A DNA stretch of 64,000 nucleotides, taken from positions 439,719 to 503,718 of the forward strand of contig QPGO01000040.1 of the NCBI GenBank assembly GCA_008632985.1, read 5' to 3'. A program made the translations under genes and the position numbers. Every line of letters starts with the position of its first letter. Position 1 is the stretch's first letter. Below the pieces are notes generated by a model that was not told the DNA's origin, did no database searches, and saw only the letters and a program-made list of their open reading frames with translations. Origin of the DNA: Psammoneis japonica. Lineage: Eukaryota. Shown here in pieces: positions 27,711 to 60,460 of the stretch.

Positions 27711-27910
27711 AGAGGGCGGCGGCCTCGGGATTGTCGTGGGAGAATGGAATGCAGGTCTACACGTCACGAACGAAACCTCCGTGTTGAAGATTCGACGACA
27801 TTCCAACGCAAATCATACGACGCAGGCCAGACATTTGCGCGGGAAAGGCAATCACTACACTTGAGTAGAAGCTTCTCATTTTTTCGACTGGATGATTCGT
27901 TCAGCTGACC

Positions 27911-29779: not shown

Positions 29780-32700
29780 GCCACACGACAGACCTGTCTT
29801 CCACTGCTTCTGTTGGATGGTAATGCCATGCGACAAGTGATTCCACAGAGAATCCACCAGCAGATTGTTCAAATGTCTTGGCATTGTCTTTCCCTTGGAA
29901 AGCTGGCTGCATTTTTGTTAAGACATTGGTTGAGTGCCAGGGCACAGCTGCAATCTGAATGGTGCCAACGGGACATTCATTGGGGTCTGGAAAGCACACT
30001 GATGGAAAGGAGCTGCACTGTGCTAGAGTCCACACAAAATCTGCCATCATTGAACTGAGGCCACTGTCCACACAGAATTGGCTGTTCCTTGCCAGCCCAC
30101 CAGGCTCCTCTTTTTTCAACTTGCATCTTGACAGAGTTCATGTTGCACTCCAAGAACCAAAGCACAAGTTCTCATCACTTGAATGACCAGCCAAGAGATG
30201 TGCTGCCAGAGAGCACACCAGCAGCAACTTGAATGGGTGGCATGTGGCTGACTGTGGCTGCTGCATGCACCCACTCTGGCATTTTCTGTAAAGCCACAGT
30301 GCAGGGATGCCGTCATTTTTCTGAAATTGCTCTGCTGTGTCCAAAGGCCCAGCTGCCAGCCCCAGCTCATTTCAGACTCCTGCAATGCAGCCAGCATGTC
30401 AAGATCTGATGGTTGACATTTCTTTCTCTCTGCTGGACTCAAATCTGGCTGAGGATGAGGAGCACATGAAGCACTGTGTTGGACCCATCATCTCTGTGGT
30501 GCCCCTCAAGTTTCCAAGGCTGCTCCACCAGATTGGCTCCATCTTTTCAGCAGACAAATGTGCGCTTGTTGATCAGGGTGGTGTGAGCAACATTTTGAGC
30601 ATGATGGCTGACGTGGTGGTGCCATGCACTCTGCCAGTGCGGATGCCTCCAGCCAGAGTGGCTCTGTTGAACACAGTCACTCAACAGTGGCAAATGTGAT
30701 CCAGGCAATTTTCCATGCATTGCAAGGTCACCTTGAATCTGGCTTTTTGTGATGTGAGAATCATGTGTCAACAAAATTTTGGTGAGTGTGAAACTTGTTT
30801 TCTCAGCCGAGCTGCTTGTGACAAGTGTTCCCACACATCCACACATGAACACAAGCACATTTTTCTTCTTTTTTGGCAGGTGGATGACTTTTCAACCAGC
30901 ACATGACTGCAAGAGTCATGACACGCGATCAAAATTTTCACAAACCTGGCATGGCTCCTCAGCTTGCTGCTGGAGAAGATGACACACTGTCCACGCATCT
31001 TGTTTTTTGCAAGGAGAGTTCAGTGGGACCAATGTTCACCAGTGCAATGACTTTGCATTGCTTTCATGCCACAGCTGCATTGACTGTGTCCTGATGTTGC
31101 ATGGTTGGCTCATGGTGGCCACTGATGAACACACTTCTGATTGTCAGGAGGTGACCCCACTCCCAGTTGAGTCAGTTTTCAAGTCACACTCTGAAGTTGG
31201 GCCTGTCAAGAGCTTGTCCAAACACAATGAATTGGCCATGGCTCAGAGCCTTGGCCATCGCAGCCAACCTCCTTGGCGAGTTGCTGTTGTGTGCACACGT
31301 CATTTGTCATCTTGGCATCAGCCATGACATCATGAAACTTTCCACCAAGCTCACCTTCTTGCTGGCTCCAGTTCACCACACTGCCTTGAAGGGTGTCACA
31401 AAGTGCCTTTGATGCATGAGATGCACTCCAGCCCCACAATGAGGGCATGACTGCATGTGACATGGGTCTGCAGAATTCTGCATGCAAGCTCTGCCACTTG
31501 TGTTCTGGTCAATGGATGTGTTTGTTTGCAGTGAATTCAAACCTCTTCGTGCTCAATGCTTTTGAAAAACTGCCTTTGCCAGAGCATTCTTAAGACATCA
31601 AAGAGTGGCTTTTGGCAAAAAAATGTCAAAAAGTTGTTGAGTGAAGAACCACCTGACAATTGCACTGCAATCTGCAAGAAACCCAAGAATGGCTCTTTGC
31701 CATCTGCTCATCCTTTTGAGCATCTTGTGGTGAACCCATCACTGCCTGAATTTCCTTGTGCTGACTCACCCCCCCCCCCCAACCGGCGGCTTTCTTGGAT
31801 GCCACATGTGCAGCAATGATCTCTGCAGCTGCCTTTCTGCCACAGGGCATGGGTGTTTGTTGGCAGGTGGTGTGATTTCATGTAGATGCAAGATGCAATG
31901 ATCTGTCGCTGCAATGAACTCTGTCAAGGCTGTGAGCTCTGCACTGCTGGTCCTGCTCCTTTGTTTGTTGACAGCAAGCTGACTGCCCGAGCGCACTCAC
32001 ACCACATTGATGTTCAGTGGCCACTCGTGCTTTAAGATTGGAAGGAAGCTGGGCAAATTGTCGCTTGACATGTTTCTGGCATTGTTGACACAAGTGATCA
32101 TGCCCAGCACACTTGTCAGCTTGTGGGACACCACTGGTGCTGAGACATGTGTTTGTGATTCTTTGGTCATGATCTGGTTTGCAATGCATGCTGCTTGCTG
32201 ATCACACCACCTCTCCCTTTTGTTCTGTCTCTGATCTGCATTGTCCAGCTCAGACATGTTGGATCAGGGGAGGGTGTCAGCCAATGGGTCACAATGTGGT
32301 GTGTGGCCAGACTGTGTTTGTGAATGATGGTCAGACGCATGGCTCAAACAGCCGAGCAGATGTCTCCTTCTTGCTCTTGTTCGCTGTTTCTCATGTTGTC
32401 ACAGTTGCCCATTTGCACATCACAGAGATCCCTCAAGCTTGTTTTTCTTGCTGCTTCCATTCCAACATCTGCAGCTGAGATCCCCCTTGGAACAACACTG
32501 GGCACATTGGCCTGCTCTGCTGTTGTCAGCACTGTTTTGAAGTGTGCCTGAAGCAGCTTCTTGTCAATGAGGGAAAAGCTCCTCCTCATGCCAACTTCAA
32601 TTTCTCTGGCACAGTTGTTCTGTGCAGGAGGGACACCATTGACTGCTGGCACAGAGAGCTTGCCAACCTTGATGAATTGCTGCAGATTGGGATTGATTGA

Positions 32701-33260
32701 CTTTTTCATTTTGTGCACACTCAACCGTGGTGGTTTGCTGGGCCAAATTTGCCCCAAATGAGGTCACCAACAAGAGACTTTGTCTTGCATGGACAAGTGA
32801 TCACTTCTTCAATGATTTCCACTTTTGACTGAAAATCCATGTTTGAAGAGCTCCAACATTCATTTTGTCAGCTCTTGAAGCATGAAGCTGCCCAGCAGTG
32901 CCACGCTTCTGACTTCCAAGGCTTCCAAGAACATTGTCTGCCCATGCCAGGTTGAGATGGATCTGTGCTGCCTCCTGAAACCATTTTGTGTCAAGTTCAG
33001 ATTTTCAATTGAGCTGCAGCAAATGGCTTTCGATCTGCAATGCAGCCTGTTCCCCTTCTGCTGAGGGACATCATCATGAATGCCGGGGGTGGGGTGGGGT
33101 GGGCAACTGTGAAAGAGGGGTGTGCCAAGTCTCGCAAATTTGCACCATTTCAGCAAGAAGAATCTGGTGATCATGATGCCAAAGAATCTGTCACACAATC
33201 ATGCCAGCATCAGGAGCCACGACAGCAGCAAAAGTGGCAACCGCGGACCTGACTTGAAAT
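29780..33260. pseudogene. Block D: decayed LRR 3' end (~30100-30450), an unidentified ~2.4-kb decayed insert, and decayed flank shared with block C
   Basis: 30110-30230 aligns to 38385-38500. 32955-33300 aligns to parts of 25445-26090. Whole block is CG/TA-depleted. Confidence 0.7.
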
Positions 33261-33498: not shown

Positions 33499-35040
33499 TC
33501 ATTCTGACGACTCGGCCATTGAATTCACGCGAGCAAAGGCGCGCATCGCATTTCGACGAACTTTTTCGTACACACTTAAAAGCAGTTGGTGATATTCGGT
33601 CAGCATTGTCCAATGCGGATGATGAGCCAAAAACTTCTCGTTTACTTGTGGTACGGGCCCGAGCTTGGAAAGGACATTATCGGCCTCTTGAAAAAGACAG
33701 AACCATACTTTCTTGGCGTACTTATGATGCATGTCATTCAATGCATCAGTGTCATTGGTAGAAGCAAAAAGGGATTCCACCATTTTCAAGTCTTGTGCAG
33801 CAGCGATAATCTCGCTTGGGTTTTTACCATTGTAGAGGTCACGGAGAATGACAAAGTAGAGCATGGCGTCAACCACTCGGTCTGGAATGGCGCCGTCTTC
33901 AACACGAAATGCAATGGTCTTGTAATCCATAAAGCCCAGTGCAAGTGCTTTTTCTTCGACTTCTTTGCTATTATACGACGAGAAGGAATTAATAATGGAC
34001 GTAGCGGGTAGCATGTCAAGCGACATATCACAGAAACCATAAACCACGGGGAAGCGAGGGGCGAAATGCTCATGCCCATAATTCAAAAAGTGTTCATCAT
34101 TTGAATCGTCGTCGAGTGATGCAAGGTTCATCATTAGCACCGCGTCTTCTATGGACCCTTGCTCGACAAACACCGAGCCATTGGATCGGTGATTGAACAA
34201 ATCTCCCAAACAGACAAGATTCATTACATCGTCTCCATCTTTATCCTTGTAGGAAGCTACCCAAGCTCTTGAGTTCATAATGGAAAAGACCCACCTGACG
34301 AGCTCGTCATTGTATTTGTGCGGTAAAATATCCCTCAACGCATTCTGATAGACATTTAGCTTTTTGTCCACGCGATTCATGTAGGACTTGAGAGGGAGTT
34401 TGTTAGCATACTCTCTTTCCTCGTCATCCCAATAGATGCTTGAAGCCATCTTTTTTGGCCAGAATTGAATGTAGGGGTACCAAAAGCTATCGCTTCCTTT
34501 GGCCGTTTCTTGCAACAAGACTAGAAACAAACAAAATTCGGAAACGTCGCAAGCAAGTATACAAGAATGGCGTTCCAGGCTCTTTCTGGCTAGTTTCTTG
34601 AGGGATCCATCCACATGGGTAGAAGAAATGACGAGTTTGGGGGGAATCTCCATGAGAACTTCAGAAAGCCCACCTTTGGCATAGACTCGTTCCGTAACAT
34701 TGGTCCCCTTTTTGCAACCCCATGCACCGAAATAGTCTTGTTTCAGCAAAGCATCTTGAGCCAAAAACGTGACATGCGTTTCATTCTTTTCTTTGGCGTC
34801 GTAGTACGTCTTATAATACTTTGTGACTGTGTTGGCCCATTCCAAAACTGGTTTAATGTCGGAACGCTGACTTTCGTCCGGGCACCCCTCTCCTCCTCCT
34901 CTTGGGAGAGCAGACAGCCACGCAGCTCGTTTGTCACCAAGGAACGGACGACGTTCAAGATTTCTGACTGAAGCAAACGAACCCGTTGCAAACAGACAGA
35001 AAAGACAAACGCTGCCTGCCAGAACGTGATATGATTTCAT
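33499..35040 (-). CDS. SET-domain methyltransferase (Rubisco LSMT/SETD3-like) with signal peptide
   Basis: SFWYPYI..W, WVFSIMNSRA, DLFNH and FLNYG..VYGF motifs. Single 500+ aa ORF. Confidence 0.85.
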   Translation of the reverse strand: MKSYHVLAGSVCLFCLFATGSFASVRNLERRPFLGDKRAAWLSALPRGGGEGCPDESQRSDIKPVLEWANTVTKYYKTYYDAKEKNETHVTFLAQDALLKQDYFGAWGCKKGTNVTERVYAKGGLSEVLMEIPPKLVISSTHVDGSLKKLARKSLERHSCILACDVSEFCLFLVLLQETAKGSDSFWYPYIQFWPKKMASSIYWDDEEREYANKLPLKSYMNRVDKKLNVYQNALRDILPHKYNDELVRWVFSIMNSRAWVASYKDKDGDDVMNLVCLGDLFNHRSNGSVFVEQGSIEDAVLMMNLASLDDDSNDEHFLNYGHEHFAPRFPVVYGFCDMSLDMLPATSIINSFSSYNSKEVEEKALALGFMDYKTIAFRVEDGAIPDRVVDAMLYFVILRDLYNGKNPSEIIAAAQDLKMVESLFASTNDTDALNDMHHKYAKKVWFCLFQEADNVLSKLGPVPQVNEKFLAHHPHWTMLTEYHQLLLSVYEKVRRNAMRAFARVNSMAESSE

Positions 35041-36167
35041 TGTTTGCACAGAATGCAATCAAGGCGTCTGAACCAAGAACGCTGCCGCAAGGAACACTGA
35101 GAGGGACACGAAGTGATTGTGAGCACGGAATGTCACGATTTTGTGCAAGCCATGGTTTTGCAACCGAGGAAAAAAAATGGTGACAGCGTGGTAATTCTTT
35201 TTGTTCCCTCGACGGTTTCGCAATGCGTCACACGCTCACGAAACACGCAAAAGCACGTTCACGACAAGTGCTCGCACTCCGCAGATCCGCAATGTCTGTT
35301 TGCGACGATGTGAGGCCAGTGCAGGACGTGTCACAATTACGACATCGATGAGATTATTTCACATCGCTGACGGTAGCGGCCTCGGAAGTGTCGTGGGACG
35401 GGATGCAGTGCAGTATGGAGTTACGACTAGCACAATGTGAACTGTAAAAAACGTCCCGAACACCCGTATCGCATTTTTTGTACAACAATATTTAACGATA
35501 ACGGTTTTTAGCAAATAATTAGGGCATTTTTACAGATGTAACCCATACAATTTGTACTCAAAAATCGATACTTGCAACACAATTAGAAGATTTTTCATAT
35601 GTTTCCTATTCAAATTGGAACTCAAATTTTGATATTCTTTTACAACTCCGACTGCTTCATAATCAATAAACAAGTTCGAATGTTTTATTAAAAGACGTGG
35701 CCGGCGTTTCGGTCCATTTTGGCGGCTCCGACATTTGAATTTACTTAACACCAGACATTTCTATAGGACATCAGTTCGTAGAACCTTAAGTACGTAGACT
35801 GGTACAAATTCTACATCATGAGTCATGTGCAGTCATTTTACATACCGATCATTCAGACATGAACTATATATACAAATACAAAATATGCAGTTCGTTATGG
35901 TCTATTTTGCACATTGTGCTAGTCGTAGCCTCATAGGATCATGAGGGAAATCCTGGGGAGCGGCATTAACGTAATTACATATAACAATAAACTGGAATGT
36001 ACACGTCACAACCGGAAACTCCGTGTTGAAGATTCGATGATGATTCAATGCGAGGCTACGGACGCCAGACAGACATTTGCGCGGGAAAGGCACGCATACA
36101 TCACGCATCAATCAACACAACCAAGGGTGAAGCTTCGCGATTTTCTACTGGATTCGTTCAACTCACC

Positions 36168-37712
36168 ATGACGATTACCTTTGCCGGAGAACGCTTTCTT
36201 GCCCCAGACACGGGTCTTCCCGACTATGAATCAGAGCGGTTCTGGATCGTCGTGAAAGCAATTATTGTTGTCTTTGTTTTTGTAGTGGTTTTGCCCGTCA
36301 CACTGGCGACTCCGGTTGCTGAGGAAATCGTGGTTCGGCCAGAACGCAACAAGCAACCGACAAGCAAGGCAAAGAAAAGGGGAAAGAAGGTGGTTGAAGA
36401 AATCAAACAGGAAGAGACCAAGAAAGAAACTCCTGTACAAGCTCCACTGTTGCTCCTGAACATCGTGGTAAGGCAACTTGCAGTCTGAATCGAATCATTC
36501 CAATTCACATTTATAATTGTTTCTCCCTCATTAGAGTTCGCAACACCAACAGCACCAATATTGCTCTCTCACCATTTCAAGTGTCATCTTACCTTACATT
36601 ATTCTCACTTTTTCAGTGCATGTTTACGTTATTGGCCTTGATCATGACGTCTTCCAACAACAAACTAACGGCGAGATCTTCGTTTGTCGCTCCGCTCTTT
36701 TCGGTGGAGGAATGCCAAACGATTTTGGATTTTTCTCACAAGGCGGCCCAGGCCAATGCGGAACAAAATCCTGAAGATGAGCTCCTGGCACTTTCGCCGG
36801 TTGGATGGCGAAAAGATCGGCACAAGTCCTATCCCACCACCGATTTGAACGTTGTTACTGACCCGTTTACCAAGGAAGATCGATTGTTTCTAGCGGAACG
36901 CCTTAACAAGAGGCTTGGTCCTCTAATCGAACGTCTCTACGGAATAACGCCAGCGGCGATTCGTGCCAATGATGTAAGTATGGACATTTCTTGTAAGTGG
37001 TATTATACTGAATCTTTTTAAACTTTCACGTTGTTGTTTCTCCGCTTAGATGTTTGTGGTTCGATACGATGCCACCAAGGGACAGTCTCATTTGCGACGA
37101 CACACGGATTCGTCTCATGTGTCTTTCAACGTACTACTCAATGACGAATTCGAGGGTGGCGGCACTCGCTTTCATAACAGATGGACCGAACAGTACAAAA
37201 CGGTGAAACCCGAGGTAGGACAGGTTTTGATTAACAATGCAAACATTGTTCATGAGGGAATGCCAACCACGGGTGGGACGCGGTACATTTTGGTGGGCTT
37301 TACCTCGATTGATCGATTTGATCCCTTTACCAACAAATCAACTGGGCTTTCTTGGTTTGCTTCGTGGTTGTCCTTACCGTGGGTACAAGTGAGAATGAAG
37401 GAGGGGACGGAAAGTTGGAGGAAACAGCGGACTCATCCGATTTTCAACAACAAGTACGTTCAATCGCTCTTTCGCGATATTCATGTGGCCTTCACGTGTT
37501 TGGGGGATTGGTTGGCGCCACACCGGATTGTAACGGTAGTGGAGGCTGCCAATACCACCCAATATCTAGCGACACTAGATGCGTCGGATGATTCATCGTT
37601 GGCAAATGCAACGTGGTTTTCGGGTCAACAAATCAACGTCGACGTGGATGGCACCATTACGGAGTTGTGGAATAGCCGACAAAGCAATGAAAGAGCCTTT
37701 CGAGAACTGTAG
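36168..37712 (+). CDS. 2OG-Fe(II) oxygenase, copy 2 (near-identical protein to 27911-29449)
   Basis: Same exon structure and catalytic motifs. Only a few amino-acid differences in the last exon. Confidence 0.85.
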
Positions 37713-38358
37713 TGGAATAGATTATGGGCGTGTATGCCTACTGTCAAGCAAAAACTCTCAATTCATGATTCCATTAGTTTCGCAATAGGATTTTCCCAAT
37801 GTTGAAAACACGCAGGGTGTGCCCTTCTTTTCCCCTGATTGTAGAGTCAATACAAGCAAAAGGATACCAGACATCGTTTTATTTTCGTGTGTTGCTTCAG
37901 CAGCGGCTATGGTGCTCTGAATTGAATCATTTCCGTGTCGTTCTTACCGTGAAACAACGTCCAGCGGCGATACATGCTCGTCGGTAAGCACAATGTATGT
38001 GGCTTTCGGGCTGACGGCATATGACAGGTCCGTGCTGTAGACGTGTAGCAAGCATTTCAAGTAGTGTGCTCTTCTGCTTCTGTTGGATGGCAACACCATA
38101 CGACAAGTGCTTCCACAGAAAATCCAACAGAAGATTCTAAAAAATCTCGGCGTTGTCTTTCTCGTGTGAAGCTGGTTGCTTTGGTTATGTATTGGTTGAA
38201 TAGAAAAGGCATGGCTGCAATCTGAATTTTATCAACGGGACAGTAATTGGGTCTAGCAAGCGCATTCATAGAAAGCTACATTGCGCTAGTCTACATGTCA
38301 TCTACCGTCATAGAACTGAGACCCCTGTGCATGTTTACGAACATCCACAAAACACTTG

Positions 38359-48639: not shown

Positions 48640-48989
48640 CAACATCACACGTGGAGCAACGATGAGAATGGTCCCCTTTAGTCCCTGGGTTGGGAATTTG
48701 AAAGCAAAAGGGCATTATTATTGATGGGAAGGAAAAGGTTGTGATGGAAATAATGCAGCCTCAGAAATGCGATTAGATCGTAACGTACCATATACCGTTA
48801 GTCATGGTTTGGCATCGCACGGAGAAAAAACCTGGTTTTGTTTTTCGATAGATTGATTCGTGATGCATTTTAGATGCTGGAAAATTTGCGTTTGAGTTGA
48901 ATTGCCGGTCAGCCAGCTGCTCGCAAAGTATGTCTATAAGCCACTCATGTGCCAGAAGCTTCTTGTGGACAAGTTTGACGACAAGTGGG

Positions 48990-50400
48990 TTTGTTGGCCA
49001 AGAACTGCTTTTCAATGCATGAGGTCATGCAGAAAGCAGCACACACAAACTCCACAAAACCAATGGAGCCCAACCTTGTTCATCTTGCAACAGCAATCTG
49101 CCAGGGTTGGTTTTGCTCCCATCAAGCGAATGTGACAAGTCCATCTTGAAATTGAATGGAGAGGATCTTCAGCCATGGCTGACAGCTGGAAACCCATGTC
49201 TTCCTATTTTGTGTTTGGCATTGGCCACTTTGCTGCTCTTGGGCATTCTCATGAGAGTCACTGTGTGGGCCCACTTGCTGGCAGCAACACTTCACCTCCA
49301 ACCCTGGTGCCCACACACCCACTCCTGCCATGATGCCAACTTCGACATGATGAAATGGCAAGACAATTCATGGCCTTGGCGAGGCAACACAGAGTCTCAA
49401 ACATGCTGAACCAACAAGTCAATGTTGCCAAAAGGGAACCCCACAAGGTTTCCTGCACCACTTGTTGCTCTTGCCATGGTTGCTGCAGTGGCTGTGGTTT
49501 GCCTGGAAGTCCTCAACAAACTTTGACATTGTGATGTGATGGAGTGCCTGCTGATGCCACAATGCATTTCATGCGAAGGTTGGCGAGATCAGCAATGAGC
49601 ATGTTTTCATTTCCAAAGTGTTGCCCCAGACATCCACTGTGCAAGTGCTGGGCAAAGTGTCTTCTCTTCAATGACTCCATGCCCAGGCTTCTTGTGCTTC
49701 CTGCTTGTTTTGGATGATGGTTCGACAAAGCAGCCCAGCACACCCGAGTGCAAGGCAGTGGATTGAACCAAAAACCAGTGCCCCATGGCCCACAGGGCTT
49801 GACCACAGCTGTGGCATGGCAGTGGCAAAAGCAACAACAGCCAGTCAGCCAGCTCCAATTCCTGCAGCATTCATGGACATGGCATGAGGTGCAGCTTGAA
49901 TGTTCATTTTCATGTGCTCGTTGAAGCAGCGCCATCACTTTGCCTGGTGCTTGTGGTTTCCTGTGACAGACTGGCTGGAAAGGAGGCAACAATGCAACCC
50001 TGCACTCAGGGTGCAGCAGCAGCCACCACCAAGCTCTCACACAAGTGGCGATGGCCACACCCCAAAGTGCGTCGCTGTGTGGAATGATGGAGCTGGCTGC
50101 CCGCCGCCCAAGCTCCACGAGATCATGTGCCCACATTGTTTGGCCACCACTGGCTGGTGATGCCAAACATGCAGGCATTGCCAGCAAGTGCACCCAAAAA
50201 TGTTCAAACCAGGGTCACAGTGCAAAACACTCCGAAACAGAACACCTGCTGTGCTTTCCATTTTGTGACATGCAGGCAGCACAGCCCTTTCATGGCACCG
50301 CCAACTTCGTCATCAGCGCAAGTGCCGTTGTGGCCGAACATATGTCATGTGCACAACTGCCGGCACTGCATACACTGCAATGAAAAATTACAGCACATGC
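48990..50400. other. CpG/TpA-depleted block E; left part duplicated at ~53500-53660 and ~56740-57100
   Basis: 49170-49350 aligns to 56860-57045. Dinucleotide signature ends abruptly at ~50400. Confidence 0.7.
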
Positions 50401-50791
50401 TGTAGCTACTAGCTCTGCTAGTAGCCACCACCAGCTCTCTCTAGCTAGAGAGTAGAGAGAGGGCCAGAGAGACTGCTGGCTAGTTTGAGAGACAGAGCCC
50501 CCTTCTACCGTATAAAATGAAGATTAATTTTGTACAGTATCGTCTTTTGAACGCAACGGAAAAATAATGAATAATGTCCTCTTAACTGTATCTGCATTAA
50601 CCATATAATACTGACTTTCTCTTTATTCTTGAATACATCTATTAAAAAATTTCCTTCCAACGCTTGGCGTTCCCGCCATCTGCATCATCATTCGCACACA
50701 TTTTTTATTTTGATTTTGTGTGTGTGTGTGTGTAGTAATAAACCGGCCAACACTTACTTTATGATTTCGCATTGAAGCCTTTCAACTAACC

Positions 50792-52995
50792 ATGAAAATG
50801 GGAAACGCCGCTTTGCTCGTCACCTTTTTGCTGATCCTGCAGTCACCTCGTGTTTATGGAAGACAGTGGTGTCCCGTTTGGCCCTTTCGATGTCCTCCGA
50901 CAATTAGCGAACAAGAACGCACCGATCTGTGCGATGCGTATTGTAACGAGTTCGCTGTGGCATGCCCCAATGTGGATATAACATCTCTTGCCATATCCAG
51001 TGAGAAAGCTACTGGTTCTCCCGTCAGTCACAAAGAATGTGTTGCAAAATGATGGATTCAAAAATGAAATTCGATGGAACGCCCCAAGACTTTGACAATG
51101 TCGATAGCATTCAATGTCGAATGAATCATGCGCGAATGCAAATCCAACAAAAGGACTTGGCAAGCTCCGACCATTGTCTTCATGCCATGATTCGTGGTCG
51201 ATCACGGTGTGATCCGAAGAACCCTGAAGCGCGCGCCATGACCGTTCTCTTTGATATCGGCCGCAGCGTGTTTTATGATCCTTTGGGCAGTACGCTTACA
51301 GCGGTGAATCGATTGGCGAGCTATGCTGTGGGCGCTATCTATCTATCTGCTTTTCGAGAACGGCTGCTGGTATCCTATCCCTATGTGGAGATTCCAGACG
51401 AAGATGTGACTTGTTCCGATCCCGAAGACACTCGGTTCCGAACGGCAGATGGTTCGTGCAACAATGTGGCCATGCCAAAGATGGGAGCCACCGGAACGCA
51501 AGTGAGTCAGTCGTTTGATTGAACACATGCGATTGCCTCGTAATCGGTTAATTTTCTTTTTGCTCCGTTTCTTCTTTCTGTTTTGTTTAACGGTCAGTTC
51601 ATACAACTCTTTCAGCCGTCCACGCGACAGGGACTTCCGAGTCCCGAAGCGGTTGCAGAGATTATCAAGAGACCAGAGTCATCAGTCCGCCCGGAGCGAC
51701 TCGCTCCCTTTTCGCAACTTGCGGTCGCTTGGATTCAAATGATGACACATGATTGGTTCGCACATTCTCCCAATGATCCCGGCAAAAATCAAGTGTCGCA
51801 TTGGTGGGATGCCTCGCAATTATATGGTTCCAAAGAAGATCAGGCGACACCGCTCCGTTTGGACGATGGCAAGCTGCATCTGGATATCAATCAAGAAGTA
51901 GATTACGAGGACGGCAGCAACATTCCTCGTACAGGATTTACAGACAATTGGTGGGCAGGTCTGCACGCCATGCACACTCTGTTTATTCGGGAACACAACT
52001 ACATTGTGGACCAATTGGAGGCGCAGTACAAAGGAATGTACGATGAAGAGGAGAAGTATCAATTGGCACGCCTCTCGGTGTCGGCCCTCATTGCCAAGAT
52101 TCACACTGTGGAATGGACACCAACCTTGCTGGATAATGATGTTTCGACCATTGCCCTAGAGACGGCGTGGTGGGGAATCGAGTCGGCGATTAAAAAATAC
52201 GGAAGTGAATTCTTGTTTGATCTGGGCTTTCCTTTACTTGGCGACTTTGCAACGCCGCACGCAGGATCCCACTCGACCGAAGAAACCTTGTACAATACAA
52301 CCTTTCAAATGACCGAGGAATTTGTGGCTGTCTATCGCATGCATCCCCTTCTTCCAGACCACATAAAAGTTCCGGACCCAGCGACGGGAGGAACCAAAAA
52401 GTTTACGTTGAATGAATTGGCCTTTGCCGATGCCCGGCAACTTGTTGAGGAAAAGACCACCCAATCCTTCTTGGAAGGGTTTGGCAAGACTCCGGCGCGC
52501 GCAATTACCTTGCAAAATTATCCACGACAATTGTACGGCCTGGAAAAACCGGGCATGCCTCGCATTAACCTGGCCGCCATTGACATTCAGCGAGACCGAG
52601 AGCGCGGTCTTCCTCTTTACAATGATATGCGCAGACTGCTCTTATTGGAACCCTATGAGTCGATTGATGATTTGACTAGCGATGCAAACGATCGTAAGTT
52701 GCTTAGATCCGTCTACAACGACATTGAAGAAGTCGACCTCATGGTGGGCAGCATGGTGGATCAACAATTACCTTCTGGCTTTGGTTTCGGCATTGTTCCA
52801 TTCCGCATCTTTCAAGCGTTTGCCACGAGAAGGATTTATAGTGATCGATTCTTCATGCAAGACTTTAAGAAAGAGGTTTACACAGAATGGGGTTTCAATC
52901 ATGTGCAGACGGAGACGTTTTCTTCCGTGATTGCTCGGCATTATCCCGAGCTAAAGTCCAAAATGCCCGAGAATCCATTCATGAATTGGGCATAG
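50792..52995 (+). CDS. Secreted heme peroxidase-cyclooxygenase superfamily protein, alpha-dioxygenase-like, with N-terminal Cys-rich domain
   Basis: RTADGSCNN, WIQMMTHDW, HWWDASQLYG, TLFIREHN, AKIHTVEWT, EEFVAVYRMH and RDRERG motifs. Intron 51502-51597. One base missing at ~51051. Confidence 0.9.
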
Positions 52996-53689: not shown

Positions 53690-55695
53690 TTACTGTATAT
53701 AAAATTGCGAACTGGCATACACAATGCCTCGTCCATCGGGCAGGCGAATCTTGAATTCCGCCAAGTAACAACCAGGTCCACCGAGATGGTTGTACCGCAG
53801 TTCCGGTTTGAACACCCAATTGCCTTTTTTTGAAAAGAGACGCAGTTGTGCATTTGTGCGCCATGGCCTGTCTTCCTTTTCATCACCAAGTTTTATAATG
53901 CGATGTACCCTTGGCTCGAGTCCGACCAGGTCGTCCGTCACCAGCTCGTTCGCGCAGGTCTTCAACCGAATCTTCAAAGCCAGCCTCGAAACGTTAGTGT
54001 GCGTGGCTCTGCTCTTTAAGTACGATGGGCATGATGAGAACCTGTATCGAGGCTTGGAACGAATGCGGAGTCGGCCCATGGGTGGCTTGCCAATGACTCG
54101 CAGACGATTGTGGTCGGCATTGAACGGACAAAGGTCGCAAGCGTCTCCAATGCCGTCGCCGTCGCTATCCTTTTGATCCGCATTGACCACCGACGGACAA
54201 TTATCCACGTTGTCCTGCACACCGTCGCCGTCACGATCGTTCTTTGACAGCTCCAACACAAAAAGCTTACGCCCTTGGCCATCATCGGCAGTAAAGTACA
54301 GCTTGTTGTCTTCAATGGGGGTCAACAAACGCGGAGAAGATTTCGAATCCTCGTCACCCGGTTGGAGATCCAGTACAATTTCCGTTTTGTGACGCAATGG
54401 ATCGTGAACCCAAAGCTCAGACCCATGCTTTTTATCGCTTGCACTGAAAAAGAGCTTTCTATCCAATGGAGTTAACCGTGATGGGTTGGACGACTTTTTG
54501 CCGAAAAAAATATCGCGCACCATTTGCGTTTTTCCAACAACAGGATCATGTACCCAAAGCTCCGATCCGTGCGTGTCTGTCCTGGCTCTGAAATACAGCT
54601 TGCCATTCAAAGGTGTTATAGACTCTGGGACCGAACTATCTCTACCAGGACGAATGTCCGTGACCATTTCCGTTGTGTCACTCGCTGGATCGTGAACCCA
54701 AAGCTCCGTTCCGTATTTGTATCCATCCGTAGCTGCAAAGTACAGCTTTCCATCCATGGGCACAAGTTCCAGTAGAAAGAAAAACGATGATTCGGAACCC
54801 GGCATGATATCCTTGACTATTTTTGTGATGCCACTGGATGGATCATGTACCCAAAGCTCCCTTCCGTGCGCTTCATCCGCTGCGCGGAAGTACAGCTTTC
54901 CATCCATGGGGGTCAAGCCCAGTGGAGACGAAGATTCCTCACCAAAATAGATGTCTTTTATCATTTCCGTAGTGAGATTCAAGGGATCATGTACCCATAA
55001 CTCCCTTCCATGAATCCCATCATCCACAGTAAAGTAGAGTTTACCGTCCATTTGTGTGAAATACAATGGAAACGAATTACCGCTTCCGGGATGAATGTTC
55101 TCTATCATTTTCGTTTTGCCACGGACCGAATCGTGAACCCAATGCTCATTTCCGCGCTTTCCGTCGTTTGCAGAAAAATACAACTTGTCATCCACAGCTG
55201 TCAAACCCCCTGGATCGGAACCCTCGCTCCCAGGGTTAATGTCTTTTAACATTTCTGTTTTGCCAGTACTGTAGCGGGATCGTGCACCCAAACCTCCGAA
55301 CCCTCTTCAAACTCTCCATAATTGAAAATTTGACTGGAAATAAAGTACAGCTTTCCATTCATAGGTACCAAATCGCTGCTTCCAAAAACATCAGGAGAAA
55401 AAGTCTCTCTGACATTTGCTGTTGTGTTGAGTACGGGGTCGTGCACCCAAAGATAACCTCCGTACCTCTCATCAACAGCTGAAAAGTAGAGCTTGCCATC
55501 CATGAATGCCATTTCTTGCGTGGGCTCCAAGGTGGTTACTTGATTGAGCTCAAAGGACAAAGTTTCTGTTAACTGACGATTGGTTTGCTCTTCCTTGTTT
55601 CGCAGACGAATCTCCTCGTTCGCCAACGGAGTGCGAAGAACTTTTTTTGCATCAGCAATGCAGAGGAGCGTAACAAAGCCCAACAACAGCAACAT
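53690..55695 (-). CDS. Secreted ELWxxDGT-like repeat (beta-propeller) protein with thrombospondin type-3 repeats
   Basis: About 8 repeats of GKLYF.A.D..HG.ELWVHDP, then [27 protein letters not shown]. Signal peptide. Frameshift near 55270. No introns seen. Confidence 0.85.
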
Positions 55696-56464
55696 TGTTT
55701 GAAACGAAGCGTCTCGGAGGAGAGAGCTTAGAACATGTGCTTCTGAGAAAAAAAGCTGTGTGTTGCGGCGATGTTTGCCAAACGCGGTTGCGGGTTGAGA
55801 GTTCTGTTCTTGTTTCATAAGTCTCAAAGGACATTTTTCAATTGCCCTTCAGAATGACTTAACGAAATAATCGAGGCAATGATGAGCTCTTGCGGTTCAC
55901 TGCTCGTCATTTGTTGGCAAAGTCCGATGAGCGCCGTTTTGTAAGGAAGGCACAGTTTGCACTCGTCGGACAGATCATCGGTGGCAGCCGGAAGGGATGA
56001 GGTGGGGGATGTAACTTGCAACAAAGAGTCAAACGAAAAGCATCCTTTGAGATCACTTCAAACAAAACGACGAGCTTCTGCAGACGAAACCACCTCTCTG
56101 CCATTTGGTGTCTTGAACTCCGCTGCATGACAACCCACACCACCAAGCTTTTTAGAATCTGCTTTAAAGACCCAGCTTCATTTCTTTTTGGAAAGCTTCA
56201 GTTTTCCATCCAACAAACCAGCATCCTCAACCACACGGTTGCCACCAACTTTTGCAAGGCGCGCAGTTGCCAAGACCCTGTCGCCCGCAAGTGCGCCATT
56301 CCCCGATTTTTTGCAAAGTGAGGTGCAACAATTTTTTTTTTGTTTGATGTTTGTTGCATTCAAACACTTAACCCTGAGTCATGATGCATCATTTTCAAAT
56401 TGTCATGACATCAATGAGGCGTTCACAGGGCCTTTGTTGTCTCACATTTTTCCCTTCGCCGATG

Positions 56465-56675
56465 ATCTTGAATTCTGCCAAGTTGCAGCCAGGTCTGCTG
56501 AGATGGTCATGCTGCAGCTCTGGTTTGAACACCCAATTTGAACCCAAGTTCATTTCTGCACTTTCTGTCATTTGCACAAAAATGCAACTTCTTGTCACCC
56601 ACACCAGCTGTCAACCCCCTGGTGGATCAGAGCTCTCGCTCCTTCAGAGTTGATGGCTTGTTCCAGGGTTGAGTT
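56465..56675 (-). pseudogene. Internally deleted, hypermutated relic of the ELWxxD-repeat gene
   Basis: 56470-56538 matches 53752-53820 and is joined directly to 56539-56670, which matches 55134-55238. Confidence 0.75.
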
Positions 56676-57480
56676 GTGCACATGGACATGCAAACATTCA
56701 TTTTGGCCCATTTTCACAAGGTGCCAACTTACAACAATCTCTTTGACAGCAGCAAAAAAAGCTTGTTTTTCATGTGCTGTCAAAAATGGGTCTTGAGGTT
56801 TTGACCCCATCAAAGAATGCAACAAGTCTGTCTTGAAATTGAGTTGAGTTGATTTTCTGCCATGGCTGATGGCTGGAAACCCATTTTTTACAATGCACAC
56901 TGGGCACTGGCCACTCCCACTCTTGGTGCACTGATGAGAGTCATTGTGTGGGCCCACTTGTTGGCAGTGACACTTTCTTCCACTTCACCTCCAACCTGGG
57001 TGCCCATGCCCCACACCCACTCCCGCCATGATGCTTGCTCCGACGAAACAAGGCAAAATGGAGAAACAGTTTGTGGCCCAGGCAAGCAACACAGTGGAAG
57101 AGCCTGGCACACCCAAGTGCATGCAGCAGACTGGGTTAAAAGCCAAGATCCCTGGGACTTGATGAAGCAACGTGGTGGCACAACATCCAAACAGCCAACA
57201 GAAGAAGAGAAAACATGAGCCTGCTGCACAAAACCAGTTTTGAGGCCCAAACACATTACATTCGATCATTTGCAGCATGAGACAACATTGTTTTGTCTCT
57301 GGACAACAAAAAGTGGCAATGAACAACATCAAAAAATCCATTCTTTAGAGATTTCAATTAAAAAAAATTCCTCCAACATGTTCCCGTGGCCATTTTCACA
57401 CATCGGTTGTTTTGATTTTCCTTTTTTGTGATGAACAAATAAAAGCACATCTCATTGAAGCCTTTCAACTTTCAACCAAC

Positions 57481-59640
57481 CATGACATGGGAAATGCTGT
57501 GTTGCTTGTCACTTGTTTGCTGATCCTGCAGTCACCTCGTGTTCATGGAAGACAGTGGTGTCCCGTTTGGCCCTTTTGATGTCCTCCGACAATCAGTGAG
57601 TTTGCTGTGGCATGCCCCAATGTGGGTGTAACATCTCTTGCCATGTCCAGTGAGAAATCTGCTGGCTCTCCTGTCAGTCACAAAGAATGTGTTGCAAAAT
57701 GCATGGATTGAAAAATGAAATTTGATGGAATGCACCAAAACTTTGACAATGTCAACAGCATTCAATGTCAAATGAATCATGCGCAAATGCAAATCTATCA
57801 AAAGGACTTGGCAAGCTCCAACCATTGCTTGCATGCCATGATTCATGGTCAATCACAGTGTGATCCAAAGAGCCCTGAAGCACGGCCGTGACAGTTCTCT
57901 TTTGTGTCGGCAGCAGCTTTTTAATGATCCTGAGGGCAGTGCCCTTGCTGCTTTAAATCGATTGGTGAGCTGTGCTGTGGGCGCCATCTGTCCATCTGCT
58001 TTTCAAGAATGGTTGCTGGCATCCTGTCCCTGTGTGAAGATTCCAGACAAAGATGTGATTTGTTCCAATCCCAAAGACACTCGGTTCCAAACGGCAGATG
58101 GTTTGTGCAACAATGTGCCCATGCCAAAGATTGGAGCCACCGGAATGCAAGTGAGTCAGTCATTTGATTGAACACATGCTCCATTTCTTCTTTCTGTTTT
58201 GTTTGATGGTCAGCTCATGCAACTCTTTCAGCCATCCACACAACAGGAACTTCCGAGTCCCAAAGCAGTTGCAGAGATTGTCAAGAGACCAGTCGAATGG
58301 ATTCAAATGATGACACATGATTGGTTTGCACATGATTCTCCCAATGATCCTGGCAAAAATCAAGTGTCGCATTGGTGAGATGCCTTGCAATTACATGGCT
58401 CCAAAGAAGATCAGGCAAAACTGCTCCATTTGGACGATGGCAAGCTGCACCTGGATGTCAATCAAGAAGTGGATGATGAGGACGGCAGCAACATTCCTCA
58501 TGCAGGATTTACAGACAATTGGTGGGCAGGTCTGCACGCCAAGCACACTCTGTTTGTTCAGGAACACAACTGCAATGTGGACCAATTGGAGGCGCAGTGC
58601 AAAGGAATGTGTGATGAAGAGGAGAAGCATCAACTGGCATGCCTCTTGGCATCAGCCCTCATTGCCAAGATTCACACTGTGGAACAGACACCAACCTTGC
58701 TGGATGATGACATTGCAGCCATTGCCCCAGAGACGGCATGGTGGGAAATTGAGCTGGCAATTAAAAAACATGGAAGTGAGCTCTTGTTTGATCTGGGCTT
58801 TGCTTTGCTTGGTGACTTTGCAACACTGCACACAGGATCCCACTTGACTGAAGAAACCTTGTGCAGTGCAACCTTTCAAATGACCAAGGAATTTGTGGCT
58901 GTCTGTTGAGTGCATCCCCTTTTTCAAGACCACATGGAAGTTCCGGACCCAGCAACGGGAGGAACCAAAAAGCTTGTGTTGAATGAATTGGCCTTTGCCA
59001 ATGCCCAGCAACTTGTTGAGGAAAAGACCACCCAATCCTTCTTGGAAGGGTTTGGCAAGACTCCAGCATGTGCAACTGCCTTGCAAAATTGTCCACAACA
59101 ATTGCACGGCCTGGAAAAACTGGGCATGCCTTGCATTAACCTGGCCGCCATTGACATTCAGCAAGACCAAGAGTGCGGTCTTCCTCTTTACAATGACATG
59201 TGCGGACTGCTCTTGTTGGAACCCTGCAAGTCAATTGATGATTTGACCAGTGATGAAAATGATCGCAAGTTGCTCAGATCCATCTGCAATGACATTGAAG
59301 AATTCAACCTCATGGTGGGCAGCATGGTGGATCAACAATTGCCTTTTGGCTTTGGTTTTGGCATTGTTCCATTCTGCATCTTTCAAGCTCATGCCACAAG
59401 AAGGATTTATGGTGATCAATTCTTCATGCAGGACTTTAAGAAAGAGGTTTGCACGGAATGGGGTTTCAATCATGTGCAGACGAAGACGTTTTCTTCCGTG
59501 ATTGCTTGGCATTGTCCCAAGCTGAAGTCCAAAATGCCCAAGAATCCATTCATGAATTGGGCATGGCTCAGTTCAAGCAGTCAATTAGAAAAGTGATGGC
59601 ATTGCAATGGAGTCAATCAATGTCAGTCATGTCAAGTTGA
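57481..59640 (+). pseudogene. Nearly full-length hypermutated copy of the peroxidase gene, with intron and flanks (block F)
   Basis: Collinear with 50791-53070. In-frame TGA stops, small deletions, catalytic YRMH changed to C*VH, retained intron. Confidence 0.95.
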
Positions 59641-59699
59641 GCCACGCAGTGCGTGCAAAACTGTCTGCCCTTTTGTTGCAACACATGTCATCTCTAAAC

Positions 59700-60460
59700 T
59701 GCTCAGCCGGTGACATCTGATTTGCTCCGCCATGTTGGGCCACGCATCAAAGCTAAAGGCACACAGTGGCAATGACAGCCCGCCAAACACACACCTGGAA
59801 GTGACTCAGTTGCTTTGCAGTTGCAAAACACTGCAATTGTCGAGATGCCCGATTTCAGGTGGGTGAGATCTGAAACAAATGCACCCCCTTCCTGGCATGA
59901 GTTCAGAGGTGACCCATGTCTGCAAGAAGTCAACAAGACTGCACAATGTGGCTAATCCGGCTGTTTGCATTGACACAGCCTCCCAAGCACAGCTTGGAAT
60001 TCATCCAGGCACAGCAACAGTTCAAGTCCAAGACAGATGGCTTCTTGAGATTGGCGCACTCAACGGGGATCTTGGCAAGACCATGACATGCATGAAGGCT
60101 CAATGATTGAAGGTCGTGCAATTGTCCAACACCAATGGGTGAGGTCCAAAGAGAGTCAACCTCGACCATTGGCTAAACTCTGCGGGCAGCTGTGTGCATG
60201 AAACAATTGTCAGCAACACAAGCTGACCAACTTCCGGGACAGACGGGTCAACCCATCACCATCCCAGCTCAAGAACTTCAAATCGATTGAAAAAGCTGAT
60301 TTCAGAAGGCCATTCAACCATTTTATTGCAATGCTTGAGGTTGATGTCTCGGGAATTCATGAAGACTTTGCCTTCATCTTCTGCACTGAGGAGTTGAGAA
60401 GTGGTGTTTCGGCAGCTGTTGCGAGTGCTCCAAGCAAGCCATCCGAGAAATCGCCCCAGA
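59700..60460 (-). pseudogene. Decayed LRR gene relic
   Basis: Fragments GQLHDLQSLSLHACHGLAKIPVECANLKK and INLKHCNKMVEWPSEI in CG/TA-depleted DNA. Confidence 0.6.

Follow-up and report, generated by a model that had tools for sequence, protein, structure and literature searches.

Results

The window, that is, the whole 64-kb stretch of diatom DNA analysed here, contains an intact animal-haem-peroxidase gene (copy A), a decayed duplicate of it (copy B), a second intact gene with its own decayed counterpart, a pair of paralogous genes that served as a control, and six islands poor in both CG and TA (Table 1). The copy A peroxidase shares 57-60% identity with its diatom homologs, which marks the source of the DNA as a diatom; a protein atlas assigned the family but was uninformative on taxonomy. 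Its intron is skipped by a spliced contig of run X2, showing that the gene is spliced and expressed, and it retains both CG, with an observed/expected ratio (O/E) of about 1.0-1.16, and TA. Run X2 behaves as RNA and gives no cover over copy B or the islands, which does not show that they are silent. At least one indel error of the kind common in long-read assemblies is present in the window, a T after 51051 being found in both runs.

Table 1. Genes, decayed copies and CG/TA-poor islands in the 64-kb window
Feature	Position	Strand	Details
Copy A, intact animal-haem-peroxidase gene	50783..52995	+	Pfam PF03098, E = 5.6e-76
Copy A gene structure	exon 1 to 51501; intron 51502-51597; exon 2 51598-52995	+	GT..AG intron
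Copy B, decayed peroxidase copy (pseudogene)	57478..59666	+	alignment to copy A
Intact 519-aa single-exon gene	33499..35058	-	no Pfam family; parent or paralog of decayed copy 26537-27750
Control paralog, 2OG-Fe(II) oxygenase gene	27850..29900	+	non-island; same tandem duplication as decayed pair
Control partner	36100..38170	+	paralog of 27850..29900
Island holding copy B	55501..60450		core 56301-60450: CG 64, TA 25, TG 449, CA 458
Island upstream of copy A	48901..50300		CG 20, TA 4
Island with decayed gene copy	25301..27700	-	CG 19, TA 6; 26537-27750 is the decayed copy of gene 33499-35058
Island with edge inside duplicated segment	29751..33250		CG 35, TA 7
Island without recognisable parent in the window	7351..10350		CG 33, TA 6, TG 340, CA 341
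Small CG/TA-poor island	14901..15550		CG 10, TA 6

Copy B has lost CG and TA by transition to TG or CA

Copy B carries two in-frame stops in the equivalent of exon 2 and three deletions of 33-48 bp each, and its stop codon has changed from TAG to TGG. Aligned with copy A by MAFFT over 2187 bases, it shows 240 differences, of which 204 are transitions and 36 transversions; these transversions together with the three deletions indicate a genuinely old pseudogene. The changes are concentrated at two dinucleotides. CG was lost at 101 of the 130 sites present in copy A (52 became CA and 44 TG; 29 were kept) and TA at 63 of 72 (41 became TG and 19 CA; 9 were kept), as against just 20 of 327 TG/CA dinucleotides altered (Fisher tests against TG/CA, p = 2e-53 for CG and 2e-45 for TA). 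Per site, the change thus amounts to 0.30-0.58 where the base belongs to a CG or TA, as opposed to 0.03-0.05 elsewhere. Double hits are nearly absent (CG to TA, 0/130; TA to CG, 1/72). Since CG and TA are both converted to TG or CA, these two dinucleotides are the end states and the GC content stays constant. Two-step flips from TG to CA occur in excess (4, 13 and 7 in three pairs), as expected if newly made CG or TA was quickly mutated again.

An earlier note on this DNA had described the pattern from a hand alignment of 52441-52680 with 59012-59251. Its 240-bp comparison was reproduced, with no gaps and 24 differences, those outside CG and TA all being transitions; TA loss was 7/9 and CG loss 12/15, or 13/16 with the inclusion of a CG that spans the right-hand edge. 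The pattern extends through the whole duplicate. The span that the note assigned, 57481..59640, was too narrow: the copy runs from about 57478 to 59666, the island around it from about 55.5 or 56.3 kb to 60.45 kb, and five more islands lie elsewhere in the window.

To assign a direction to these changes, 88 amino-acid differences between the copies were compared with 21 outgroup homologs. The ancestral residue lies in copy A at 70 of them and in copy B at 7, the other 11 being tied; the changes therefore arose on the dead copy B (70 of 77 informative differences). The earlier note's claim that one copy was hit, in a dinucleotide-specific manner, is borne out, and the changes do not map equally onto both copies.

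Sequence context of the changes

The A-to-G rate in copy B depends strongly on the 5' base, being 43% after T (62/144), 3.8% after A (13/342), 2.5% after C (8/323) and 1.9% after G (6/318). AT-to-GC transitions are thus restricted to TpA (62/144, compared with 27/983 after A, C or G combined), TA is at least 11 times as mutable as AA, and the possibility, raised in the earlier note, that A-to-G change is equal across contexts can be dismissed. Transitions make up 97% of the changes at TA sites (61, with 2 transversions). For cytosine, C-to-T is found at 95 of 258 sites before G and at 19 of 784 other sites (about 2-4%), with 6 of 325 before A; both strands are affected at CG (43 changes on the plus and 52 on the minus strand), and CG loss is quicker where the flank is A or T (W:S = 52:21 in strand competition).

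The 3' base also matters at TA, in the order C>T>G>A (TAC 23/35, TAT 21/44, TAG 9/28, TAA 9/37), and competition between the 3' flanks of the two strands gave 29:15, a difference that at these modest counts corresponds to p = 0.049. The TAs that survive in the islands point the same way: TTAA accounts for 12 of 46, compared with 4% in background, and ATAT, GTAC and ATAC for 1 of 46, compared with 30%. A preference for T-A-Y with protection of TTAA is therefore seen twice independently, in pair rates and in surviving island TAs, although counts are modest. Among AA contexts, AAC (6/66) and AAT (5/98) lie slightly above background, as compared with AAA (1/94) and AAG (1/84). A transcription-strand bias was considered, given that TG exceeds CA as the outcome at TA on the sense strand (42:20, A over T changes, p = 0.007), and was rejected, since the excess is explained by flank composition and sites with symmetric flanks gave 18:17.

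Replicate pairs and spared DNA

Two further pairs show the same decay. In the decayed copy of the 519-aa gene, 8 of 61 CGs were kept (23 became CA and 18 TG) and none of 31 TAs (12 became CA and 11 TG). In the third pair, the first roughly 470 bp of the island at 29751..33250 are homologous to non-island DNA at 38027-38492, with 8 of 33 CGs and 2 of 19 TAs retained, and the duplicated segment is cut by the island edge at about 29750. In contrast, the control pair, which stems from the same tandem duplication, shares 83 of 107 CGs and 48 of 71 TAs at 87.9% identity, with 136 transitions and 109 transversions, and shows no dinucleotide decay even when non-coding flanks are included. Non-island DNA outside long open reading frames (13.1 kb) has a CG O/E of 0.99 and a TA O/E of 0.65, values above those of coding DNA; TA is moderately under-represented genome-wide (O/E about 0.55).

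As a control for composition rather than a test of generality, we used 80 metagenome loci from a scan with a 20-sequence peroxidase alignment. These loci show mostly 34-42% identity and are probably bacterial, just two short ones reaching 50-51%; a metagenome scan with the peroxidase sequence alone found nothing. None of 1819 one-kb windows from these unrelated loci (0.97 Mb) has the composition that defines an island, as against 21 of 127 here.

Six sharply bounded islands

The six islands, all within one genome, have sharp bounds and total about 15 of the 64 kb. Their GC content (0.46-0.52) is close to the overall value of about 0.47, and their TA O/E of 0.00-0.05 amounts to near-total depletion. 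TA-free runs reach 944 and 1302 bp in the island at 7351..10350, and 1.3-1.6 kb in the island stretches without a parent (7.4-10.4 and 30.3-33.3 kb). The edges are steps within about 150 bp that are common to CG and TA, with a shoulder at 55.5-56.3 kb of the copy B island where TA is low and CG is still near normal. The expressed genes next to them are spared, as are other paralogs and ordinary non-coding DNA. The changes are thus confined to regions rather than genome-wide, with sharp edges and with the control pair and non-island DNA spared, which supports the earlier note in this respect.

Upstream of copy B, its island is a mosaic of decayed pieces akin to 53.3-55.3 kb and 49.1-49.8 kb; segment 49109-49451, in the island upstream of copy A, is homologous to 56797-57160. 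The island at 48901..50300 also includes a multi-copy repeat (49303-49736, at word depth 363 compared with about 60). Judged by a word depth of about 60, island DNA is for the most part single-copy. None of 62 six-frame island reading frames of at least 90 aa matches Pfam at E <= 0.01, and three islands searched for LTR or TIR structure yielded no direct or inverted repeat of 30 bp or longer. A purine/pyrimidine-recoded self-search of the window, with noise of about 130 bits by reversed controls, found parents for the decayed segments described above only.

Base confirmation and allelic variation

Contigs of a separate public run (31-mer word depth about 60), from one sample, possibly the one from which the assembly was made, carry the same CG/TA-depleted island sequence. 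They show the same TG and CA, which speaks against the base-calling artefact that the earlier note had allowed for. Window and separate run disagree at 49 positions, at 47 of them by a transition. Of the 39 differences listed for run X1, almost all lie within 55.5-60.6 kb and 22 have CG or TA in one allele, in the window at 11 (CG 5, TA 6) and in the run at 11 (CG 6, TA 5). A half-depth heterozygous TG/CA dinucleotide lies behind 56916. Both kinds of change thus segregate as alleles, and the process is still active. The island at 48.9-50.3 kb shows one difference from the separate run, so that the rise in polymorphism differs between islands and could in part stem from haplotype structure. The remaining 17 of the 39 X1 differences are transitions outside CG and TA, for which a model of two processes makes no specific prediction.

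Discussion

We propose that in sharply bounded regions of a few kb, CG and TA are selectively lost through in-place transitions to TG or CA, that the DNA so treated consists of host pseudogenes and repeat relics, and that the CG part would be due to 5-methylcytosine (5mC) deamination and the TA part to a separate process like that of the alga Bigelowiella natans. We assign this reading a probability of about 0.8. It builds on the spectrum, direction and regional confinement of the changes and on their continued activity, all of which are directly observed. The islands would represent transcriptionally silent, CpG-methylated chromatin in which 5mC deaminates, faster at A/T-flanked CG, and in which a separate, faster TpA-specific AT-to-GC process acts on 5'-T-A-Y-3' (R-T-A on the other strand). 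Assuming an identical mechanism, this process would be of the same kind as in B. natans. Its chemistry may be deamination of adenine by an ADAT2/TadA-like enzyme, giving hypoxanthine, or may involve a modified thymine (5hmU or 5fU, for example) that mispairs or is repaired; given that TA is palindromic, the two are indistinguishable from sequence alone. A TpA-specific adenine deaminase or modification had been among the candidates of the earlier note and may still apply.

Region-targeted mutators such as RIP, APOBEC and AID are rare and informative. To our knowledge, a TpA-specific DNA mutator was not known before a 2026 preprint on one rhizarian alga. The earlier note knew of no description of such mutation, a statement superseded by that preprint, in which TpA-only hypermutation was measured in B. 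natans: in mutation-accumulation lines, 230 of 231 hypermutations were A-to-G or T-to-C at TpA (20/20 virophage, 210/211 NCLDV), at a rate of about 6e-7 per site per generation, and TpA-depleted clusters number 124 (Mettrop et al., bioRxiv 10.64898/2026.01.13.699255). As far as the accessible part of the preprint goes, both systems make A-to-G or T-to-C transitions from TpA to TpG or CpA, are confined to discrete regions and raise polymorphism there; B. natans rates lie orders of magnitude above background, and the islands show a per-site excess of at least about 10-fold, which is a relative and not an absolute rate and precedes saturation correction. The differences, within the same part of the preprint, are several. 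The diatom (Stramenopiles) has a CG-to-TG/CA component of similar size within the same boundaries (95 changes in 2.2 kb), whereas CpG goes unmentioned and no C-to-T component is seen for the chlorarachniophyte (Rhizaria). Host pseudogenes are proven targets here, three decayed segments being copies of host genes, as opposed to NCLDV and virophage inserts. Depletion reaches a TA O/E of 0.00-0.05, compared with a Rho of 0.45 for the B. natans NCLDV insert, and the 3' flank order C>T>G>A is described only here. The TA half has therefore been reported once before, in an unrelated alga, and the dual loss of CG and TA and its occurrence in a diatom are new as far as found: no report of diatom TpA hypermutation, or of CG and TA co-depletion anywhere, was found in a literature search outside which most subscription journals lay.

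The CG component resembles the 5mC-driven CpG decay of vertebrates and plants in that TG or CA replaces CG on either strand, within certain regions and more quickly at A/T flanks, with methylation here presumed from this likeness. Diatom transposable elements are CpG-methylated by DNMT5a, according to the accessible part of the source (PMC9998398). However, 5mC decay alone would cause no TA loss and would lower GC, whereas in the islands TA is lost and GC unchanged, because the TA-to-TG/CA changes compensate for the CG loss.

For the TA component, deaminases offer partial precedents. ADAR prefers the motif 5'-UAG with a 3' G, as given in one table of the source (PMC10661471), and the 5' order seen here (T 43% > A 3.8% > C 2.5% > G 1.9%) is ADAR-like; in contrast, a 3' G is poor here (TAG 9/28 against TAC 23/35), and ADAR acts on dsRNA, unlike the change seen here in genomic DNA with the intron retained. 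TadA and ADAT2 target A34 of the anticodon ACG, and trypanosome ADAT2 is also able to deaminate C in ssDNA, as stated in the same accessible part (PMC10661471). The best context here, T-A-C, with TTAA as the best survivor, may correspond to their U33-A34-C35, with the reservation that counts are modest. In tRNA, A34 is preceded by U33, and early TadA base editors showed a 'YAC' preference. On the side of thymine, dinoflagellate 5hmU, which marks silenced transposons, is a C5 modification placed preferentially at TA (and TC) that is concentrated on repeats, coincides with 5mC and serves in silencing (PMC11572971, accessible part). It is a mark from another SAR lineage, but an epigenetic one, with no mutational consequence reported in that part of the source.

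Two known mutators come close enough to be weighed as rivals. Neurospora RIP is likewise transition-only and dinucleotide-biased and inactivates duplicated or silent DNA in place. It mutates both copies and prefers CpA, creating TpA and lowering GC. A homology-triggered defence of this type, in which duplicates are sensed and mutated, perhaps via the RID-related DNMT4, would fit the presence of decayed duplicates of nearby genes in at least three islands; DNMT4 is present in many diatoms and groups with fungal RID, according to the accessible part of the source (PMC9998398). We nevertheless consider it improbable. Mutation is limited to a single member of each pair, and both copy A and gene 33499-35058 are intact; the paralogs that arose in the same tandem duplication show no such decay; one duplicated segment is crossed by an island edge; island DNA is mostly single-copy (word depth about 60); and TpA is nearly eliminated at constant GC, the opposite of RIP, whose creation of TpA the earlier note had also held against it. 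That note had instead offered C deamination followed by error-prone patch repair by a Pol eta-like polymerase, with WA-to-WG changes as in AID-driven somatic hypermutation. The combination of CG decay with A-to-G at WA, the slight elevation of AAY and the apparent sense-strand excess of A over T changes (42:20) all recall that process. Yet Pol eta prefers TA over AA only modestly, and roughly half of the changes at A:T in somatic hypermutation are transversions. Here TA far exceeds AA (43% vs 3.8%), 61 of 63 changes at TA are transitions and the strand excess disappears at symmetric flanks (18:17), and the B. natans signature, in the accessible part of the preprint, arises without any C-to-T mutations. 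We therefore abandon this candidate as very unlikely.

The remaining alternatives dispense with a targeted mutator in these islands. If CG and TA were hypermutable everywhere and kept by selection in functional DNA, the islands would be at neutral equilibrium; that they consist of pseudogenes and unrecognisable relics, with 62 reading frames lacking Pfam signal, and that TA is moderately low genome-wide (O/E about 0.55), would be in keeping with this. However, the 13.1 kb of non-island DNA outside long reading frames keeps its CG (O/E 0.99) and TA (0.65), the control pair at 12% divergence has no excess of CG or TA change, and island edges are steps of about 150 bp, so that the neutral-equilibrium reading is already contradicted by these data and has hardly any probability left. 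Miscalling of modified island bases as TG or CA deserves even less credence. The indel error after 51051 does attest to long-read-type error in the window, but the CG/TA-free sequence recurs in contigs of a different run (31-mer word depth about 60), the differences between window and run go both ways (11 sites in each direction), copy B has three deletions and 36 transversions besides, and double conversions are absent, as real sequential mutation predicts. The orphan islands (7.4-10.4 and 30.3-33.3 kb) might finally be foreign viral or transposon DNA that was CG/TA-poor on arrival, given that they have no parent in the window and no recognisable domain, and that the B. natans targets are integrated viruses, according to the preprint's accessible part. 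This too we regard as very doubtful: their composition is indistinguishable from that of demonstrably decayed pseudogenes, their surviving TAs have the same flank bias, LTR or TIR structure was not found in the islands searched, and their TA-free runs of 1.3-1.6 kb exceed those of any of the 1819 control windows.

Under the proposed reading, in which 5mC deamination and a separate TpA process act side by side, a TA signature near saturation in a diatom, in host pseudogenes and together with CpG decay, would extend the phenomenon to a second major, ecologically important lineage, and the host-pseudogene targets argue for chromatin state rather than viral origin as what defines a target. More speculatively, diatoms and chlorarachniophytes may share an old, SAR-wide silencing-coupled system that marks both self-complementary pyrimidine-purine dinucleotides of silenced DNA, CpG (5mC) and TpA (5hmU/5fU or adenine deamination), and whose outcome, inevitable or deliberate, would be to erase CG and TA irreversibly and GC-neutrally until only TG/CA is left. 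The 'antiviral' TpA hypermutation of B. natans would then be one face of a system through which pseudogenes and repeats of the host are removed as well. We hold this wider view only tentatively and think it may well be wrong.

The flank preference for T-A-Y with TTAA protected can discriminate among candidate enzymes, and a TpA-specific activity converting A to G in DNA would be interesting as natural base-editing chemistry. Islands of this kind add to transition polymorphism and distort estimates of diversity and of the molecular clock, and transgenes landing in them could be degraded. They are not detectable by GC content, and they contain long spurious open reading frames because the stop codons TAA and TAG have been erased.

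An erasure of CG and TA confined to islands

The dinucleotide profile and segmentation of the window delimit six islands, about 15 of the 64 kb, in which observed/expected ratios are 0.05-0.3 for CG, 0.00-0.12 for TA and 1.7-2.0 for TG+CA, while GC is unchanged at 0.46-0.52. Together they hold 46 TA and 161 CG, where 577 and 782 are expected at background density; the longest TA-free run is 1592 bp, and TA loss is fuller than CG loss. Island edges are steps within about 150 bp that coincide for CG and TA, with TA loss reaching slightly further at some of them (55.5-56.3, 9.9-10.35 and 50.0-50.3 kb). By the same criteria, 21 of 127 one-kb windows here are island-like, versus 0 of 1819 from 0.97 Mb of unrelated metagenome loci.

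Islands and paralog pairs in the window
Feature	Coordinates	Partner	Description
Island	7351-10350
Island	14901-15550
Island	25301-27700
Island	29751-33250
Island	48901-50300
Island	56301-60450		contains copy B
A/B pair	50783-52995	57478-59666	intact peroxidase gene (copy A), decayed pseudogene (copy B)
Pair 2	34220-35400	26537-27750	intact gene segment, island
Pair 3	37900-38560	29630-30290
Control pair	27850-29900	36100-38170	two 2OG-Fe(II) oxygenase genes of the same tandem duplication

Decay of one peroxidase copy

Copy A encodes an animal haem peroxidase (PF03098, E = 5.6e-76) and is expressed, since a contig of the RNA-like public run X2 is spliced exactly over 51502-51597 (GT..AG). In copy B the counterpart of exon 2 is interrupted by two in-frame stops, and the copy has lost 33-48 bp in each of three deletions. 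A MAFFT alignment of 50500-53100 with 57230-59700 gave 240 differences in 2187 well-aligned bases, 204 of them transitions. Copy B retains 29 of the 130 CG sites of copy A (52 became CA, 44 TG) and 9 of its 72 TA sites (41 became TG, 19 CA), against 20 of 327 TG and CA sites altered (Fisher tests versus TG/CA, p = 2e-53 for CG and 2e-45 for TA). The four CG/TA positions have per-site changes of 0.30-0.58 and all others of 0.03-0.05, with 61 transitions to 2 transversions at TA sites and 95 to 5 at CG sites. Double hits are nearly absent (CG to TA, 0/130; TA to CG, 1/72), which fits a process halting once the dinucleotide is gone. The 240-bp sample on which an earlier note had based this signature recounts identically at 24 differences, with 12 of 15 CG lost (13 of 16 if the one straddling the right edge is included), 7 of 9 TA lost and only transitions among the rest. 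That note had also placed the mutations on one copy, and polarisation agrees: at 88 amino-acid differences, 21 homologs, of which the best share 57-60% identity and two are named, both diatoms (Fistulifera solaris, Odontella), favour A as ancestral 70 times and B 7 times, with 11 ties, so that the changes occurred on copy B.

Both X2 and the public DNA run X1 carry an additional T after 51051. Exon 1 of copy A thus lies in two frames in the window (ORFs 50765-51052 and 51004-51522), and the missing T is probably a 1-bp assembly indel error rather than a genuine frameshift; copy B reads CA where T-corrected copy A would read TA. At 52183 of copy A the X2 contig has C, as does the aligned copy B base, versus T in the window and X1, which marks either an allelic difference that is expressed or one between RNA and DNA. 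A (GT)n microsatellite, at which X1 contigs appear to break, lies just upstream of the gene (50700-50742).

Replicate pairs and controls

Because transitions keep the purine/pyrimidine class, the window was searched against itself in a two-letter alphabet, which revealed, besides the A/B duplication, a tandem segmental duplication (~25.3-30.2 versus ~33.2-38.5 kb). Pair 2 retains 8 of 61 CG (23 became CA, 18 TG) and 0 of 31 TA (12 became CA, 11 TG); pair 3 retains 8 of 33 and 2 of 19. In pair 3 the opening ~120 bp, which lie beyond the island, are conserved and keep their CG; decay begins at ~29750, so an island edge crosses a duplicated segment. In contrast, the control pair (87.9% identity; 136 transitions, 109 transversions) has 83 of 107 CG and 48 of 71 TA in common, with symmetric exchanges, and the 13.1 kb that lie outside both islands and long ORFs have observed/expected ratios of 0.99 for CG and 0.65 for TA, above those of coding DNA. 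The decay is therefore regional, neither a genome-wide bias hidden by selection nor triggered simply by duplication.

In the ~5 kb duplication units (25300-30200, 33200-38500) a 519-aa ORF survives in one copy only and a 2OG-Fe(II) oxygenase gene (PF13640; not of the TET/JBP family) in both. Two neighbouring genes, 3165-4229 (+; Mut7-C RNase domain, PF01927) and 1802-3001 (+; endonuclease/exonuclease/phosphatase family, PF03372), are probably unrelated to the decay.

Flanking context and strand

With strands pooled, A-to-G change in the A/B pair affects 62 of 144 A preceded by T (43%), versus 13/342 after A, 8/323 after C and 6/318 after G; within TA it ranks by 3' neighbour as C (23/35), T (21/44), G (9/28) and A (9/37). 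C-to-T change affects 95/258 C followed by G, versus 6/325 before A, 5/240 before C and 8/219 before T, and within CG depends on the 5' neighbour (T 47/88, A 21/52, C 15/62, G 12/56). Where the two strands of one site are in competition, the pyrimidine-followed A wins 29:15 at TA (p = 0.049; modest statistics) and the A/T-preceded C wins 52:21 at CG (p = 4e-4). The surviving TAs of all islands provide an independent check, again on modest statistics: TTAA makes up 12 of 46 versus 4% of background TAs (p = 3e-7), and ATAT, GTAC and ATAC together 1 of 46 versus 30% (p = 3e-6). A sense-strand excess of TG over CA (42:20) becomes 18:17 at sites with symmetric flanks and is thus a composition effect. 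Double flips between TG and CA number 4 in the A/B pair (~0.2 expected there from two independent background hits, by our own arithmetic), 13 in pair 2 and 7 in pair 3, an excess that fits newly arisen CG or TA being quickly returned to TG or CA.

Allelic differences

X1, a run from the one public sample found to contain the stretch, which may be the assembly's own source (platform not recorded), was compared as contigs over 48001-61000 at a 31-mer word depth of ~60. Its contigs repeat the CG/TA-poor sequence, leaving miscalled modified bases, the artefact raised in the earlier note, unsupported. Relative to the window they show 49 differences, of which 47 are transitions; 38 of the 39 listed fall within 55.5-60.6 kb, and just one difference lies in the island at 48.9-50.3 kb. 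Within single contigs the differences are confined to the island part and spare flanking genes (in record 5, six in 55488-56869 and none in 52740-55487). One allele has CG or TA at 22 of the 39, in both directions (window CG 5, TA 6; X1 CG 6, TA 5), and several are at half depth, hence heterozygous, including a TG-versus-CA dinucleotide behind 56916 and another at 58638-58639. Since the differences are symmetric, an assembly base-calling artefact cannot produce them; on the simplest reading, both haplotypes went on mutating at CG and TA after divergence.

At 54169-55452, in a gene (53690-55306) with thrombospondin type 3 repeats, X1 contains a back-joint as well as half-depth joints that skip 711 and 581 bases (depth 28.8), which suggests a haplotype structural difference or repeat collapse. 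In X1 the segment 49303-49736, lying within the 48.9-50.3 kb island, stands at a word depth of 363 versus ~60 elsewhere and has numerous loose ends at 49402-49519; it is a repeat dispersed in roughly six copies, the sole clearly multi-copy island part within the 13 kb compared.

Discussion

The process is transition-only, dinucleotide-specific, regionally confined and in place, and is currently active or recently so. A RIP-like sensing of homology fails, as the earlier note had argued from the removal of TpA: TpA is indeed destroyed at constant GC, one partner of each pair and the co-duplicated control pair are unmutated, and an island edge runs through a duplicated segment. The patch repair by a Pol eta-like polymerase that the note had named as one candidate is contradicted by the ratio of TA to AA targets, by the scarcity of transversions at TA and by the absence of true strand bias; moreover, the TA signature of Bigelowiella natans comes without any C-to-T. 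Neutral equilibrium is contradicted by the non-coding and paralog controls, and a sequencing or assembly artefact by the same bases in independent contigs. Native composition of foreign DNA is possible for two orphan islands only.

We favour two co-localised processes in silent chromatin, with a probability of about 0.8. The CG half would reflect 5mC being deaminated where silent chromatin is methylated. Diatom transposable elements are CpG-methylated in a DNMT5a-dependent manner (PMC9998398; PMC2806351), and CG was the most mutable dinucleotide in a P. tricornutum mutation-accumulation study (PMC6604790). The TA half has a single precedent. In B. natans mutation-accumulation lines, 230 of 231 hypermutations were A-to-G or T-to-C at TpA (20/20 in a virophage and 210/211 in an NCLDV region, both of them integrated viral DNA, with a rate of ~6e-7 per site per generation), and 124 clusters show depletion of TpA and enrichment of CpA+TpG; Mettrop et al. 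proposed an ADAT2-like adenine deaminase, and CpG, diatoms and flanking context go unmentioned in their text (bioRxiv 10.64898/2026.01.13.699255).

Given two co-localised processes, adenine deamination has somewhat less than an even chance of explaining the TA half. In tRNA, U33 precedes A34. The TadA/ADAT2 target is A34 of anticodon ACG (PMC10661471), with which the preference for T-A-C here is compatible, whereas the 5'-UAG preference of ADAR does not match our flank order. A modified thymine such as 5-hydroxymethyluracil would be equally compatible with the sequence, and we hold it possible though rather unlikely; something else takes the remainder. C5-oxidised thymines can pair wrongly with G, which leads to T-to-C change. 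Dinoflagellates have 5-hydroxymethyluracil in place of T preferentially at TA and TC; it is a silencing mark on transposons there and overlaps 5mC (PMC11572971). TA being palindromic, the sequence is silent on whether A or T is damaged.

The earlier note knew of no description of such a process. The TA signature itself is no longer unprecedented; for diatoms, full-text literature with few subscription journals yielded neither TpA hypermutation nor a joint erasure of CG and TA. New here are the extension to a second eukaryotic supergroup lineage, the targeting of host pseudogenes, TA loss coupled to CpG decay within shared sharp boundaries, near-total depletion and a flank preference defined, on modest statistics, in one 64-kb window.

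As TAA and TAG stops vanish with TA, many long overlapping open frames run on both strands of all islands (e.g. 7714-8583 (-) and 26590-27474 (+)); they have a high content of Cys, His, Gln and Trp, and gene finders could annotate them as orphan proteins.
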